A stretch of 51,823 bases of DNA from a virus (lineage: Duplodnaviria; Heunggongvirae; Uroviricota; Caudoviricetes): the IMG/VR virus record IMGVR_UViG_2721755725_000010. The stretch is one strand, 5' to 3'. How positions within the stretch are numbered: position 1 is the stretch's first letter; each line of letters starts with the position of its first letter. Position numbers: made by a program. Of the stretch, positions 36,001-42,000 are shown one piece after another.

Positions 36001-39000
36001 AAGAAACTGGTCGAGGATTTCAGGCGCAGACGCCCCTGCACCAATCAGCGCCAGAACGGCAGCCGACAGGCCGTATCTGATTTTTGCGTTCATGGATATT
36101 TATCAGGGTTTATCGATTTCAAATCCCTGGATATATTAAGTCTTCAGGCCAGCGGTGGAGTCTTCAGAGAACCCGTAATTATTCCCGGTAGTTTTCCTCT
36201 GTAGGTTATCAACACATCCTGCGCCTCTAAAATGATGGGCCGCTTTTCCGGCAACGGACCATCCCCTTCACATAACCCGGCAGCAACATCCATGAAAAAC
36301 TGCTTCGCCTGCTTTTTCGCCTCAGCTTCGTAAAACTCCAGCGTGGCACCTTCAGTACGGTCAAGACTAATCGCCACATCTGGCAACAACAGTGACGGAT
36401 ACCCACCAATTTCCAGTGCCACAGTAACAGTAATCTTATCCGGGTAATTATTTATCCCTTTAACAACCAGTTCGTATTTTTTCTTCATCACTTTACTCTC
36501 CCCGCACCGCCTTACGCCGGTCCTCTCTGATTTTGAAATACAGGTTAGTCAGATACGTCAGCAGGCCAAACAGCAGACTCCCCAGTACACCTATTGCCAC
36601 CCACTGGGACGGAGAGACTTTGTCCAGCAGTTGCAGTAACCAGTATCCCGTCCCTACCGCTGACGTGGTGTATGACACACCTGTTGTGATTTTTTCCATC
36701 TGATGTATGTCTCCGTCACCGCCGACAGAAAATGAAAGTAAAGGAAAACAAAAAGCCGCCAGTGTCACCCACTGACGGCCAACTCCGGGAGCCGTGATTA
36801 TGGCATTCAGGCTCTGCTAAAAATGCCAGATAACATTCCGGCCCCCCTGGTTCAGGTTATAAATGACACAATATCTTGACAACATCCGTCACTGTCTGTC
36901 AGAAAATATACCGCCAGGCATAAGTATCATGTGAAATCCAACTATCCTTTTGAGCCAGCACCTCCCCACCGAAAGTCAGTGCTGGCTGTTTTTTTCCTTA
37001 ATAAAGCATCTGTAACTGAAACAATCCGCATATTGATAATATATTGACAGGCATCATTGCTGTCTGTGAAAAATAAGTCTCTACAAACATACAAGGCCTT
37101 TTAGCCAGCGTCTTCTTTCAGGTCAGTCGCTGGCTCTTTTTTTATTATGCTGCCGGTGCATTTATCTCCAGCACCAGACTTTCTATCTCAACGCCATACG
37201 CTGCATTTTTTGTAACATCCGTCAGCGTCAGCGCATTCAGTCCCAGTGTCAGACTGTCTTTTATAACCTGGAATGCCGGGCCAGCCACTCCATTCAGTTT
37301 CGGAGTAACCGTGGCACTGCCGGCGGTGAACACCAGCTCCAGCGTCTGCCAGTCGTTACCGTAATCGCCGAACTCCCCCAGCTTCGTGTTTCCGGCTTTC
37401 CTGTGATGCATCAGATTCACTCTGCCGTCAGTGGTCTGAGTGAAGTACGACATCAGGAACGGATTACCGGTACCCGTCATCGCCACACCATCAGGAACGG
37501 GAGCATCCGTATACAGATAAATCCCCAGCCCGAACTGATTGTTGGTCAGTGCGCCTGACAGGCGGAACTTACAGGTCAGTCTGCCGCCCTGTGTCAGCAG
37601 GGTAATTGCGTCATCCACCGGATGCGTCAGGGACCAGGTTTTATTGCTCTGCTTGGTGATCTTAAATACACCATCTGACAACTGAATTCCGCCATCCTTA
37701 ATGCTCCAGCCCTGCGCAGCAGCCTCTCCGGCTGCCGGCAGCAGGGAGATTGTGCGAACGGACGTATCTGCAGACGGACCCGATGGCGTGTTGCCGCCGG
37801 GCGAGGGTTTGATTTCCGGTGCCTTACCACTGATGAAGGCTGAGGTGCGCCCGGCTGCGTTCAGAATAGCGGTTGCCAGACGATCCGGAATAATGCTCCT
37901 GCGCGCCCATGAACTGAAATGTGTCGGGCGGTTTGATGATACCTGGTTTCCATTCGTTCTCGATGCCGCACCGTAATATCCTGATGCCGGAATATCCGGA
38001 TCTTCTGCCGGCGCGTTAGTGGCGGTATTGACGCCGTTACCGTCTGTCATGAAGGGCACAAAATAAACGCCCTCACTCTCCCTGTTTTTGTACGCCCCGT
38101 AAATGGTGTTGTACTGGGTGCCGTAGGTATTTTTCCAGTAATACGTCGTGTCACCACAAATCCACGGCACATCTGCAGCACTGCCACCATGGCACTGCGC
38201 GTTAAACACGGAGAGGTCAGCACGAAACTGTGTCAGCATGGCTGTAAACAGCGCAGGTTGCTGTGCGTGGGTGGCGGCGCTCATGTCAAACTCTCCCTGC
38301 ATCCAGCAGACGGCCAGCAGAACGTTTTTGGGATTTTTCTGCAATGCCGCTTTTGTGCGGGAAATCAGGTCCTGATATAACGGTTTACCCACACCCCAGC
38401 GTGCCGAATCCTGGCTGGCCCCCGTGTCCGCACTGAATGTCCCCTCCGCGCCCTGGGTGAATGCCGAACCACCACGACAGCATGGTACCAGCAGGATCCC
38501 CGCGTTATTCGGGATATACGGAAGCAGTTTTTTGGCAATATGTAAGCCCTGGCCGACACAGCCGTACTGCCCTTTGCTCAGGTCTGCCTTCGGATGATTC
38601 AGCGTACTCATATCCTGCACATCATGCAGGCAGTGGTCGGCCGGAATAATATCGTTATATCTGCAGGCAGCCCCGCCCGGCGTAACTGTACTGCGGCGCG
38701 CCAGCTGTTTAATGCGCGGATCCGGAGCATCGTATGAATCCGGCAGCGGAAGCCCTTCACCGTAAGCCATGGCATTGGACTGCCCGGCCAGTACGATGAC
38801 GTAGTACCAATCCGGCTCAGTTGCACCACTGACCACCACATCACCTTCTGCTGTAATCGCCTGCATCAGGGTATAAGGGGTTATGGCCACCGGACTACCA
38901 AACGGCTGCCAGCCCTCTTTCAGTTTGTGTGTCAGCTTTTCCGCAAGGTCTGACGGCGACGCCGCCCTGACAACATCATAATGTTTAAATGTCATTATTC

Positions 39001-42000
39001 CTCCCGGCCGGGATAGTGTATTAAATCAGATATGGAGTGGGCTGGCTGTAGTCCGGAAGCCTGAATGACACTCGGGGACTACAGCCCAAGAAATGAAAAA
39101 AGGCCACGCAGTTGCGCAGCCTGATAAACCCTGGTTAAAATCCACACGATAACAACACAACAATATCAGTATCTCATGCTATTGCCCGAACCCATTCGGG
39201 CATTTTTTACCCATAAAAAAAGCCCCTCCGGAGAGGGGCATGTTTGCATGCACATTCTTTTTCTTGCATGGTGCCGGGTGCCTCCCGGTGAATTCAGTAT
39301 CAGCACCTGAATCCGCGATTATCACATATACCTGGTTGCTGATTGCCCCTCCGCACAGGGGGATTCACCATGCAGTAGTATTTTTAATAAACAGCAAATA
39401 AAAAAATCAAGCATTATGCAGGCTGTTTCTTTTTATCACCGGCTACAGCAATACCACAATGCCGCAGACCAGCACCCCATCCGCCAGCACCGACATGATT
39501 CTGCTGGTGAAATCCACCATCACCACCAGAAACAGCAGGAGTGCAGCCACAGCCAGGCGCAGTTTTACCGTCACTGGTGATTCTCCAGACGAAGACCCAG
39601 AACACCGGCAATCTCTTCCAGCACCTTGCGCTCTTCCGGCTCAATTATTTCTGACGTAAACGCGGACAGCGCAGGCTGATTACGCAGTACCTGTTCGATC
39701 TTCGATTTCTAGGAAGCCTCACATTCACCATCTGCACAGGCCACCAGGTAGGCAGCATTAATAACCGCCTGTGCCAGATTGAACCGCCCCGGAAATCCTG
39801 GAGACTAAACTCCCTGAGAAAGAGGTAAACAGGATGACTAAAAATACTCGTTTTTCCCCCGAAGTCCGTCAGCGGGCGATTCGTATGGTTCTGGAAAGTC
39901 AGGATGAATATGACTCACAGTGGGCGGCAATTTGTTCCATTGCCCCAAAGATTGGCTGTACGCCGGAGACTCTGCGTGTCTGGGTTCGCCAGCATGAGCG
40001 GGATACCGGGGGCGGTGATGGTGGGCTCACCAGCGCTGAACGTCAGCGTCTGAAAGAGCTGGAACGTGAAAATCGTGAACTGCGCCGCAGTAACGATATC
40101 CTTCGCCAGGCTTCCGCTTATTTTGCGAAGGCGGAGTTCGACCGCCTCTGGAAAAAATGATGCCACTGCTGGATAAGCTGCGTGAGCAGTACGGGGTCGG
40201 ACCGGTATGCAGCGAACTGCATATTGCCCCGTCAACGTATTACCATTGTCAGCAACAGCGACATCATCCGGATAAACGCAGTGCCCGTGCGCAGCACGAC
40301 GACTGGCTGAAGAGAGAGATACAGCGCGTATACGATGAAAATCATCAGGTGTACGGTGTGCGTAAAGTCTGGCGTCAGTTGTTACGGGAAGGAATCAGGG
40401 TGGCCAGATGTACAGTGGCACGTCTCATGGCGGTTATGGGACTTGCCGGTGTTCTCCGGGGTAAAAAGGTCCGTACGACCATCAGCCGGAAAGCCGTTGC
40501 CGCAGGCGACCGCGTAAACCGTCAGTTCGTGGCAGAACGACCTGACCAGCTGTGGGTGGCTGATTTTACTTACGTCAGCACATGGCAGGGCTTCGTCTAT
40601 GTGGCGTTTATCATTGATGTGTTTGCCGGATACATCGTGGGGTGGCGGGTCTCATCGTCTATGGAAACGACATTCGTGCTGGATGCGCTGGAGCAGGCGT
40701 TGTGGGCCCGTCGTCCGTCTGGCACCATCCATCACAGCGATAAAGGCTCTCAGTATGTGTCACTGGCCTATACGGAGCGACTAAAAGAAGCCGGATTACT
40801 GGCATCAACAGGGAGTACAGGCGACTCGTATGACAACGCGATGGCTGAGAGCATCAATGGTCTTTACAAAGCGGAGGTAATACACCGTAAGAGCTGGAAA
40901 AACCGTGCAGAAGTGGAACTGGCCACACTAACGTGGGTGGACTGGTATAACAATCGACGATTGCTGGGAAGGCTGGGCCATACTCCTCCGGCAGAAGCAG
41001 AAAAAGCTTATTATGCTTCCATCGGAAACGATGATCTGGCAGCCTGAGTTCACAGATAAAACACTCTCCAGGAAACCCGGGGCGGTTCACATCGCGTTTC
41101 TCAAACTTTCCTTTTTCCGGTTAACGTGACACACCAATAACTCTTGTCGAAAAAGCCAGCAAGCTGAAAGACCGGTATTCACCGCCGCCAGCGCGTTTAC
41201 TGTACTGACGCGATTTTCGGACATAAAAAAAACGCCTGGCGGCAGTTTTTTTCTTACTTTGCCATCGCGTACAAAATAGGCAAAATATCAGATTTATACG
41301 AAACATACGCGATTTAATTGACTTTTGCAATATCTCGTCGTGAAAAGGTCGCTTTTTGTTGCGCTCTTATTTTCACGGAGCAAATCAAGGATTCTCTATC
41401 GAGGCGCTTAAAAATATCGCACATCTCACGCCAGTAGTTCGCATAATTATGGCTCCAGTTATCAGGCTTAACTCCACACAGTCTGGCAAGCTCCTGTCTC
41501 TGGTAGACCTCACACCCGGTAACCCATCCTCTGACATCCTGTGCCGCCAGCCAGATCAACTTCTTCACACGCTCCAGCGTTTTCACTGCAATTTTTCTGG
41601 TACCAGACTGAGTTTTAAATTCATTCCACACCCACTGCGTTATCGCGATCTGATGCTCCCAGCAAATGTTTCCGCCATAACACCACAACAACCACGCCTT
41701 CTGATGTTCTTCCAGTTCCAGAAGGGTACGCCGCCACGATGATGTTGCAAACTCAACAGGACTGACCAGGGCAATTGATGAGCCTTTCGCCAGTGATTGT
41801 TTACCCGGGATTGGGGGATTATCCCGCGTGATCATTTTTCCGGTTACCTCATCGCGGTAACGAATTTTTTTGCGTCTGTAACGCCCTGTATCGAACAGGG
41901 CATTTTCCTGCCAGGCTTCCAGTTGACCTTTTGTCGCCCCACTGAGATCCGCAGTGGCAATCATGAGTTGCTCACGAACAAACTGTAAATACTGGTTATT

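Follow-up and report, generated by a model that had tools for sequence, protein, structure and literature searches.

In phages that carry Shiga toxin (Stx), the toxin genes stxAB lie between the late promoter and nanS-p, as in the Q-stx-nanS-p-S region described for Stx2a phages by Pascal et al. 2023 (PMC10462455). What stands in that position in a related prophage without the toxin, and was the toxin ever there? The question is raised by a late region within the 51,823-nucleotide (nt) sequence IMGVR_UViG_2721755725_000010 of IMG/VR, a member of the Caudoviricetes, referred to below as the window. The original prediction had described 37145-39779 as a toxin-less relative of an Stx-phage late region, with nanS-p preceded by terminators and with the insertion sequence (IS) IS629 and a gene fragment in a remodelled cargo slot. 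We find that the region is very probably the cargo ('moron') slot in the late operon of a lambdoid prophage, defective and not of the Stx type, in enterohaemorrhagic Escherichia coli (EHEC) O111:H8, and nothing that was found contradicts the anatomy of the slot given here. By sequence comparison it is homologous to the Q-to-S region of Stx phages but lacks the toxin, and the remains of a tciA-tciB cassette hold the place of stxAB, immediately 5' of the small RNA (sRNA) gene STnc100.

Layout of the late region

A segment of 10.3 kb around the slot (34500-44800) is 100% identical in 28 complete, annotated RefSeq E. coli genomes, and those among the 28 that are named by serotype are all O111:H8 or O111:NM. 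The RefSeq annotation of E2855 (locus L019), one of the 28, describes a lambdoid prophage with its late genes on the minus strand; besides nanS-p, Q and the lysis cassette it lists genes for the head and terminase, and an immunity region containing dicB and DicF. Since the late genes are on the minus strand, the late region is read from high to low coordinates, and its features are given in that order.

41314-42003, minus strand: Q antiterminator gene of the phage-82 type, 229 amino acids (aa) (Pfam PF06323, 279 bits)
41295-41333, minus strand: putative late promoter PR' (-35 TTGCAA at 41330-41325, 17-nt spacer, -10 TATGTT at 41307-41302)
41225-41253, minus strand: tR'-like hairpin flanked by A/U (fold -11.4 kcal/mol)
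41090-41106, minus strand: 17 nt of tciA (codons ~17-22) left on the Q side of IS629 (comparison with loci L003 and L017)
39780-41089, plus strand: IS629/IS1203 copy A, 1310 bp, opposed to late transcription (repeat comparison; identical to copy C)
39575-39779, minus strand: remnant of the pseudogene tciA, TerB family (Pfam, alignment; in RefSeq a pseudogene with an internal stop)
39443-39574, minus strand: tciB (DUF3927), 43 aa (Pfam PF13064, 45.6 bits)
39209-39399, minus strand: STnc100 sRNA gene (Rfam RF02076, full length)
39239-39222, minus strand: STnc100 terminator (terminator scan)
39147-39208, plus strand: AgvB, an anti-GcvB sRNA gene (Rfam RF02702, full length)
39183-39202, plus strand: AgvB terminator (terminator scan)
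39101-39122, minus (late) strand: intrinsic terminator just upstream of nanS-p (terminator scan)
37145-38995, minus strand: nanS-p, prophage sialate O-acetylesterase gene, intact, 616 aa (open reading frame (ORF) call, Pfam, PDB matches)
36911-36995, plus strand: homologue of the PasA-family sRNAs, between nanS-p and the holin gene, antisense to the late strand and outside 37145-39779 (alignment)

The elements named in the original prediction are all in place, ie nanS-p, three terminators upstream of it, and the TerB-like fragment at 39575-39779 with IS629 abutting it.

Comparison with Shiga toxin phages

As in Stx phages, the Q gene lies immediately upstream of the (putative) late promoter. 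Its product is 66% identical to phage 82 Q over 229/229 aa. The exact 229-aa protein was found in public assemblies at one Stx2 place (L010, GCA_015687505.1), at six toxin-less places and at three with the O111 arrangement. The segment 42091-41107, from the 3' end of rusA to 207 bp past the Q stop codon, is 99.7% identical in DNA to L010, and identity to the loci with the exact Q is 99.5-99.7%. In L010 the order is DUF968, RusA, Q, a 65-aa ORF, a DNA methylase, tRNA-Met/Arg/Arg, RIP and SLT_beta (stx2AB), STnc100 and nanS-p, and its toxin is identical to Stx2a at 317/319 positions in the A subunit and 88/89 in the B subunit. L010 resembles the window in the Q segment, including a 100% identical Q protein, and in having STnc100 directly 3' of the cargo, followed by nanS-p. 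It differs in the cargo itself, with the 65-aa ORF, the methylase, the three tRNAs and stx2AB where the window has tciA'-IS629-tciA'-tciB', and its STnc100 and nanS-p are only ~68-71% identical to those of the window. At the six toxin-less places the same backbone carries the methylase and a tRNA remnant, then STnc100-AgvB-nanS-p.

No trace of the toxin was found. A tblastn search of the whole window with the A and B subunits of Stx1 and Stx2, for which the sequences of H-19B and an Stx2a phage served as queries, gave a best E value of 0.78, and blastn gave nothing significant. ARAGORN found no tRNA genes in the window, and Rfam gave no tRNA at the gathering score, nor at E ≤ 1 in 36700-42100; the same tools gave three tRNAs each in the Stx2 loci L010 and L005. 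As had been predicted, there is no stxA or stxB between PR'/tR' and nanS-p, and there are none of the tRNA genes that are typical, if not universal, upstream of stx2. As stx is absent, the region is a relative of the Stx-phage late region and not a member of it, and there is no sign that the slot ever held stx or tRNA genes. The predicted kinship is borne out at either end, by a Q protein 100% identical to that of an Stx2 prophage and by a nanS-p-to-lysis segment ~99-100% identical, per 100 nt, to that of H-19B.

The toxin-less prophages that share this Q retain part of a tRNA, which in locus L007 lies at 8357-8416, after the methylase gene and before STnc100 (Rfam, 37 bits, covering model positions 7-64). 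It may be what is left of the tRNA array found upstream of stx2 in L010.

The nanS-p product has the three-domain architecture DUF1737 (residues 3-50), SASA (66-262) and DUF6645 (467-577). Residues 59-379 match the E. coli NanS/YjhS structure 3PT5 (E 2e-121) and residues 421-613 match 6YP6, a PDB chain named NanS-p (E 8e-30), which upholds the assignment of the gene; by homology, the protein would be a 9-O-acetyl sialic acid esterase. It is identical at 609/616 aa to the protein of L007 and at 606/617 to that of PPyecE_EH1910. The nanS-p DNA is mostly 97-100% identical per 100-nt segment to H-19B, L007, L017 and PPyecE_EH1910, with a few segments at 87-91%. For H-19B the comparison was made on DNA identity and not on protein, given the broken reading frame of its nanS-p. 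In the H-19B record (L002, AF034975.3, 2150-4650) the gene is unannotated and its longest ORF is 282 aa, with DNA ~99% identical to the window; the break is probably due to sequencing errors or to a real pseudogene.

In the window, as in Stx phages, the S-R-Rz lysis genes come after nanS-p. These genes and the spacer between nanS-p and S match H-19B and L007 at ~100% identity, but not L017 or PPyecE_EH1910. H-19B (AF034975) and other Stx1a phages, eg Stx1a_11KH263, resemble the window in nanS-p, spacer, S, R and Rz (mostly 97-100% per 100-nt segment), and H-19B has an STnc100 homologue directly 3' of stx1B. They differ in a slot filled by stx1AB, in a Q of another type (a 435-bp gene), and in the stretch of STnc100 and the anti-sRNA, which is 51-81% identical and gives no AgvB match at the Rfam threshold.

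The comparisons also define where the cargo ends. In all relatives examined, homology resumes at ~39375-39392, directly 3' of the cargo, and STnc100 is the element found there in every one. The cargo 5' of this point is stx1B in H-19B, stx2B in two Stx2 loci, tciB in JLK-2012 and PPyecE_EH1910, and the methylase/tRNA remnant in L007. Because similarity resumes there in every relative, the cargo slot has a fixed downstream limit, at the 5' edge of STnc100. Across 39480-39080 (3' end of tciB, STnc100 and AgvB) identity per 100-nt segment is ~100% to L017 and 92-100% to PPyecE_EH1910, against 51-81% to H-19B.

The tciA-tciB remnant

The tciA remnant alone scores below the Pfam threshold for TerB (18.6 bits, cut-off 24.4). 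Its DNA is 91-97% identical to the full-length tciA of phage PPyecE_EH1910, the 143-aa product of which scores 60.9 bits for TerB. No intact TerB-family TciA ORF is left in the slot: the gene is truncated at its 5' end, contains a TAG codon, has lost 156 bp internally and is interrupted by an IS. The lesions of the slot were mapped by aligning the remnant to the intact tciA-tciB of L003 and to the O157 prophage L017 (NZ_CP022050), and five were found. The first ~49 nt of tciA are gone, and the PR' leader now runs straight into codon ~17, with an AAAG microhomology at the point of fusion (~41106/41107). A GAG-to-TAG change is present in tciA at 39711-39709, and a TGG-to-TAG change in tciB leaves 43 aa instead of 55 aa. 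An in-frame deletion of 156 bp in tciA lies at 39647/39646, between GAAATT repeats, and IS629 is inserted in what remains of the gene.

The first three of these lesions are also found in L017, with a different Q and no IS at that site, and prophages of O121, O26 and O103 match the stretch that covers the leader-tciA fusion. The tciB allele, WP_001344632.1, is likewise present in O157. Because they are common to an O157 prophage without the IS, the three lesions are old and unrelated to IS629. The predicted remodelling of the slot is real, but most of it is old and widespread, and IS629 is a late, simple insertion.

The closest relatives of the cassette are the non-Stx phage PPyecE_EH1910 (LC567835) and L017. 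Both share with the window the tciA/tciB cassette, the STnc100-AgvB pair and nanS-p, at 92-100% per 100-nt segment, and L017 also agrees with the window in the fusion of the leader to tciA and in the TAG codon of each of the two genes. They differ from the window in having other Q genes, neither IS629 nor the 156-bp deletion in tciA, and a different nanS-p-to-S spacer. PPyecE_EH1910 further differs in its intact 143-aa TciA and 55-aa TciB, and in a methylase and two further genes upstream.

IS629 copies

Copy A is one of three copies of IS629 in the window. The others, and the gene remnants joined by one of them, are as follows.

42092-43401, minus strand: IS629 copy B, 25 differences from copy A
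5541-6850: IS629 copy C, identical to copy A
42004-42091: 3' remnant of rusA, joined by copy B
43402-43645: DUF977 remnant, joined by copy B

RefSeq labels copy A an IS1203-family element. It contains ORFs of 108 aa and 296 aa (orfA/orfB) and an ALIL frameshift pseudoknot at 40115-40231 (121.5 bits). Its size, its terminal inverted repeats (TGAACCGCC...) and the orfA/orfB frameshift with a pseudoknot are those of the IS3 family. The flanks of copy A read GCGATG/IS/ATCTGG, compared with GCGATCTGG in the intact sequence, ie there is an imperfect 3-bp duplication, ATG/ATC, with one mismatch. The tciA sequence runs on across the IS for 17 nt on the Q side, and a synthetic query without the IS matches four O111 genomes (95NR1, 95JB1, 8B and 8E) in one piece at 99.9%. 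The continuation of tciA across the element and the empty site in these four genomes identify copy A as a simple insertion. A deletion junction at copy A (3-bp flanks GAT/CAT, plus strand) was considered and rejected on the contiguity of tciA in the PPyecE/O157 comparison and on the empty site.

No target-site duplication was found at copy B (TCT against ATG) or at copy C. The whole nin region between the DUF977 gene and rusA is missing, with copy B in its place; because copy B joins the two gene remnants without a duplication, it marks the nin deletion. The 25 differences between copy B and copies A and C all fall in nt 14-254 and 1151-1301, and the central ~900 bp is identical, a pattern which suggests that isoforms of IS629/IS1203 have undergone gene conversion. 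We also considered whether recombination between the inverted copies had turned the Q segment around, and rejected this as the triplets at the flanks are not those that such a swap would leave.

The copies resemble the IS629/IS1203 elements of EHEC, for which excision with IEE has been described (Calvo 2023, PMC9943667), in their 1310 bp, inverted repeats, ALIL frameshift and multiple occurrence, and in presence/absence polymorphism between closely related strains. They differ in the imperfect duplication (ATG/ATC) of copy A and in the position of copy B, without a duplication, on a deletion junction.

The same four O111 genomes lack both of the IS629 copies that flank Q. The junctions were examined in 95NR1 only (locus L018, 4340-4380 and 5340-5380), where they read GCGATG/TGGCAC and CTCTCT/TGAGCAG. 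The former retains the odd G that flanks copy A, and the latter lies at most 1 bp from the deletion junction of copy B. Both equal the window sequence after removal of the IS together with 3 or 1 of the bases next to it, from between TG/TGA microhomologies involving the IS terminus. They resemble near-precise IS629 excision footprints, which would be consistent with IEE. That the four IS-less genomes are not ancestral, and are instead near-precise excision revertants of the state seen in the window, is possible but doubtful. Excision of IS629 promoted by IEE in EHEC was reportedly described in Kusumoto 2011. The strains in which IEE promotes it include O111:H8 (PMC9943667).

Small RNAs

Of the three predicted terminators upstream of nanS-p, all fold far better than shuffled sequences (z-scores -3.7 to -3.9), but two of them belong to sRNA genes, STnc100 and AgvB, which had gone unnoticed. 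STnc100 scores 143.3 bits against a gathering score of 47 (E 9e-32, model positions 1-206 of 206) and has an internal deletion relative to the H-19B and L007 variants. AgvB scores 96.5 bits against 56 (E 1.6e-17, model positions 1-62 of 62), and its fold has a z-score of -3.75. The third terminator, at 39122-39101, folds with -14.9 kcal/mol (z-score -3.7, equalled by 0/200 shuffles) and overlaps the putative AgvB -35 element on the other strand. Each sRNA gene is preceded by promoter-like hexamers, which would serve as its own promoter: TTGATT at 39410-39405 and TTAAAA at 39387-39382, 17 nt apart, for STnc100, and TTGCGC at 39112-39117 and TAAAAT at 39136-39141, 18 nt apart and ending a few bases before the Rfam start, for AgvB.

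The two genes are convergent and their ends are back to back. AgvB contains the CACAACA motif, the GcvB target mimic, within 39154-39164, has a 3' Rho-independent terminator, and converges with a late-strand sRNA at the moron site. A 5' variable region with a mimic of the GcvB R1 target, a 3' terminator and the convergent moron-site layout are the features of AgvB as defined in PMC4104026. Tree et al. 2014 described a moron-tolerant site downstream of the Q-antiterminated PR' that 'carried convergent sRNA genes', eg 3' of stx2B in Sp5 (PMC4104026). AgvB is encoded in the O157 Sakai prophages Sp10 and Sp17, and homologous copies are abundantly expressed and give a fitness benefit in O157 (PMC4104026). 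The anti-sRNA loci of O157 Sakai (AgvB in Sp10/Sp17 and AsxR/EcOnc27 3' of stx2B in Sp5; PMC4104026) share with the window a short Hfq-type sRNA with the CACAACA seed mimic, a conserved 3' terminator, a convergent late-strand sRNA and a moron site downstream of PR'. There is no difference in kind: the window holds another copy, in another serotype.

Beyond nanS-p, the PasA-family homologue matches PasA of the enteropathogenic E. coli (EPEC) strain E2348/69 (NC_011601, 743499-743415) at 52/53 positions in its 3' 53 nt, and the published PasA northern probe matches at 24/25. It is of the EHEC EcOnc51/52 type and is neither in Rfam nor annotated in RefSeq. Prophage PP2 of E2348/69 has the order Q82-type Q, ORF, DUF3927, PasD2, esterase, PasA and holin. 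It resembles the window in this gene order, in the DUF3927 gene, in the 1851-bp esterase gene and in a PasA-family sRNA antisense between esterase and holin; it differs in having PasD2, of related structure and partly alignable, in place of STnc100, and in having neither AgvB nor IS629. The PP2 arrangement is reportedly covered by Pearl Mizrahi 2021, alongside Zhu et al. 2026. A PasD identity for the STnc100 of the window was considered and rejected, PasD2 being alignable only in parts and the window carrying the STnc100 form. According to Zhu, Shabalina and Storz, the commonest arrangement is an esterase gene flanked by a PasD2/STnc100-type sRNA and PasA, and the synteny of TerB, esterase, STnc100/PasD and PasA has been reported (bioRxiv 10.64898/2026.05.13.724894).

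Late promoter and proposed expression

The position of PR' is proposed from its hexamers, which are conserved with the Q82-type prophage PP2 of E2348/69; the phage 82 record, X92588, ends at the Q stop codon. A further -10-like element, GATATT, lies downstream at 41289-41284. This arrangement would suit a sigma-dependent promoter-proximal pause of the phage 82 kind. The leader (41249-41107), which starts at the tR'-like hairpin, shares 89% identity with the sequence that directly follows Q in Stx2a phages and in PPyecE_EH1910.

On the minus strand the order runs from the phage-82-type Q through the putative PR', the weak tR'-like hairpin and the leader shared with Stx2 phages to the dead tciA/tciB cassette split by IS629, and on through STnc100 with its strong terminator, the convergent AgvB (plus strand) and a further terminator to nanS-p, the PasA-family sRNA (plus strand) and S-R-Rz. 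By analogy with other lambdoid prophages, STnc100, AgvB and the PasA-like RNA would be made in the lysogen from their own promoters, and AgvB would act there as a sponge for GcvB (PMC4104026). If Q were made, the Q-modified RNA polymerase from PR' would be expected to read through the tR'-like hairpin and 1.3 kb of antisense IS629, and then to cross the STnc100 terminator and that at 39122-39101 into nanS-p and the lysis genes.

Alternative explanations

The close ties to Stx phages could be taken to mean that the slot once held stxAB, together with tRNA genes, and lost them by a deletion mediated by IS629. An identical Q protein drives the Stx2 prophage L010, nanS-p and the lysis genes are nearly identical to those of the Stx1 phage H-19B, and the slot does contain IS629, which with IEE is known to cause adjacent deletions (PMC9943667). 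We consider this very improbable. Copy A is a simple insertion in a contiguous tciA, with an empty site in four O111 genomes. The sole deletion junction of the slot, between the leader and codon ~17 of tciA, lies 17 nt from the IS and is also found in an O157 prophage that has another Q and lacks the IS there, and O121, O26 and O103 match the same stretch. The cargo position is filled by the tciAB remnants, and no remnant of stx or tRNA appeared even at permissive thresholds. It is scarcely credible that Q itself was imported from elsewhere as a 1002-bp segment of a composite transposon bounded by the inverted IS629 copies (39780-43401). These copies do bracket Q, neither has a perfect target duplication, and the Q segment is 99.5-99.7% identical to the Q regions of other prophages, with flanks of other affinities. 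Against this, 17 nt of tciA stand on the Q-side flank of copy A and continue beyond the IS, the outer flanks share no duplication, and copies A and B differ at 25 positions. A composite transposon was rejected as the source of Q, and is in practice refuted by the sister strains, which lack both IS copies and carry the same Q segment in the same place.

It is also unlikely that the sRNAs, nanS-p and Q are inert wreckage, neither expressed nor useful, and intact merely through recent origin. The prophage is indeed heavily degraded, with three IS629 copies, an IS91 in the tape-measure gene, the nin deletion and the tciA and tciB pseudogenes, and 95NR1 has lost nanS-p and everything between nanS-p and the tape-measure remnant. 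But nanS-p (616 aa) and Q show no damage and match widespread alleles at ~99-100% identity. STnc100 and AgvB are present in full, each with an undamaged terminator and with promoter-like hexamers, and the homologous AgvB is abundantly expressed and beneficial to fitness in O157 (PMC4104026).

Several points weigh against a moron slot that works as part of a late operon, the reading we prefer. A simple promoter scan did not list PR', and the tR'-like hairpin is weak (z-score -2.0, with 11/200 shuffles folding as well). The conserved promoter-like hexamers and this hairpin are all that was found for PR' and for read-through; the position of PR', the passage of Q-modified polymerase across IS629 and the expression of the sRNAs and nanS-p are proposed by analogy with lambdoid biology. 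Q is separated from the early rightward operon by copy B and the nin deletion; the transposase of copy B reads toward Q, and read-through into Q is conceivable. Finally, nanS-p is cut short by IS91 in the sister strain 95NR1, so that selection on the late region is not uniform within this lineage.

Other features of the prophage

The lysis genes follow nanS-p and the PasA homologue on the minus strand (all from Pfam and RefSeq).

34768-36699, minus strand: lysis cassette as a whole
36493-36699, minus strand: S21-type holin gene
36144-36488, minus strand: DUF1327 gene
35560-36093, minus strand: lysozyme gene R
34768-35262, minus strand: Rz

The prophage is decaying as a whole: a second IS629 stands in place of the nin region, the tape-measure gene is broken in two, and an integrase fragment is annotated as a pseudogene. 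The tape-measure gene is interrupted by an IS91-family transposase gene and a 121-aa ORF at ~19640-21190 (coordinates from E2855, locus L019, with an offset of ~1 nt). In 95NR1 the same IS91 joins a truncated nanS-p to the tape-measure remnant, and the lysis, terminase and head genes are deleted. At the tail-fibre end, positions 1-9500 of the window hold a cluster of type III secretion system effector genes, ie espM1, nleG, nleH1-2, nleF and a truncated gene of the nleG family, together with IS630 and IS256 fragments and the integrase pseudogene; nleF is annotated as frameshifted and incomplete and abuts IS629 copy C. DicF lies at 47017-47068 (plus strand; Rfam, 72.5 bits) in the early-left region and is followed by dicB and ydfD (47243-47619). 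Direct repeats with a period of 162 bp, in three overlapping 282-nt copies that are 87-93% identical, occupy 26690-27295, within a 2580-bp gene annotated by RefSeq as 'portal protein'.

Significance

The locus was already known, in that its sequence is present in annotated RefSeq genomes and its architecture, the sRNAs, the diversity of nanS-p and the dynamics of IS629 have all been published. What the present analysis adds is a map of the slot, now corrected and complete, together with the succession of events by which it took shape. The standard coding-sequence annotation, here that of RefSeq, omits the sRNAs. Beyond correct annotation the importance is small, and the feature is an ordinary one.

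If the IS-less O111 genomes are indeed revertants, their junctions would be natural footprints of the microhomology end-joining by IEE and transposase which has so far been proposed from in vitro work. Gain and loss of IS629 on both sides of Q could then switch the coupling of Q, nanS-p and lysis gene expression to induction of the prophage.

Stx-converting and toxin-free prophages have the Q/PR' module in common, and the nanS-p/lysis module as well, and the exchangeable cargo always stops at the 5' edge of STnc100. This provides context for the movement of stx between phage backbones, which has already been described. The stx-negative prophages of O111 carry AgvB, STnc100, a PasA-family sRNA and nanS-p, all of which have been implicated in colonisation of the gut.

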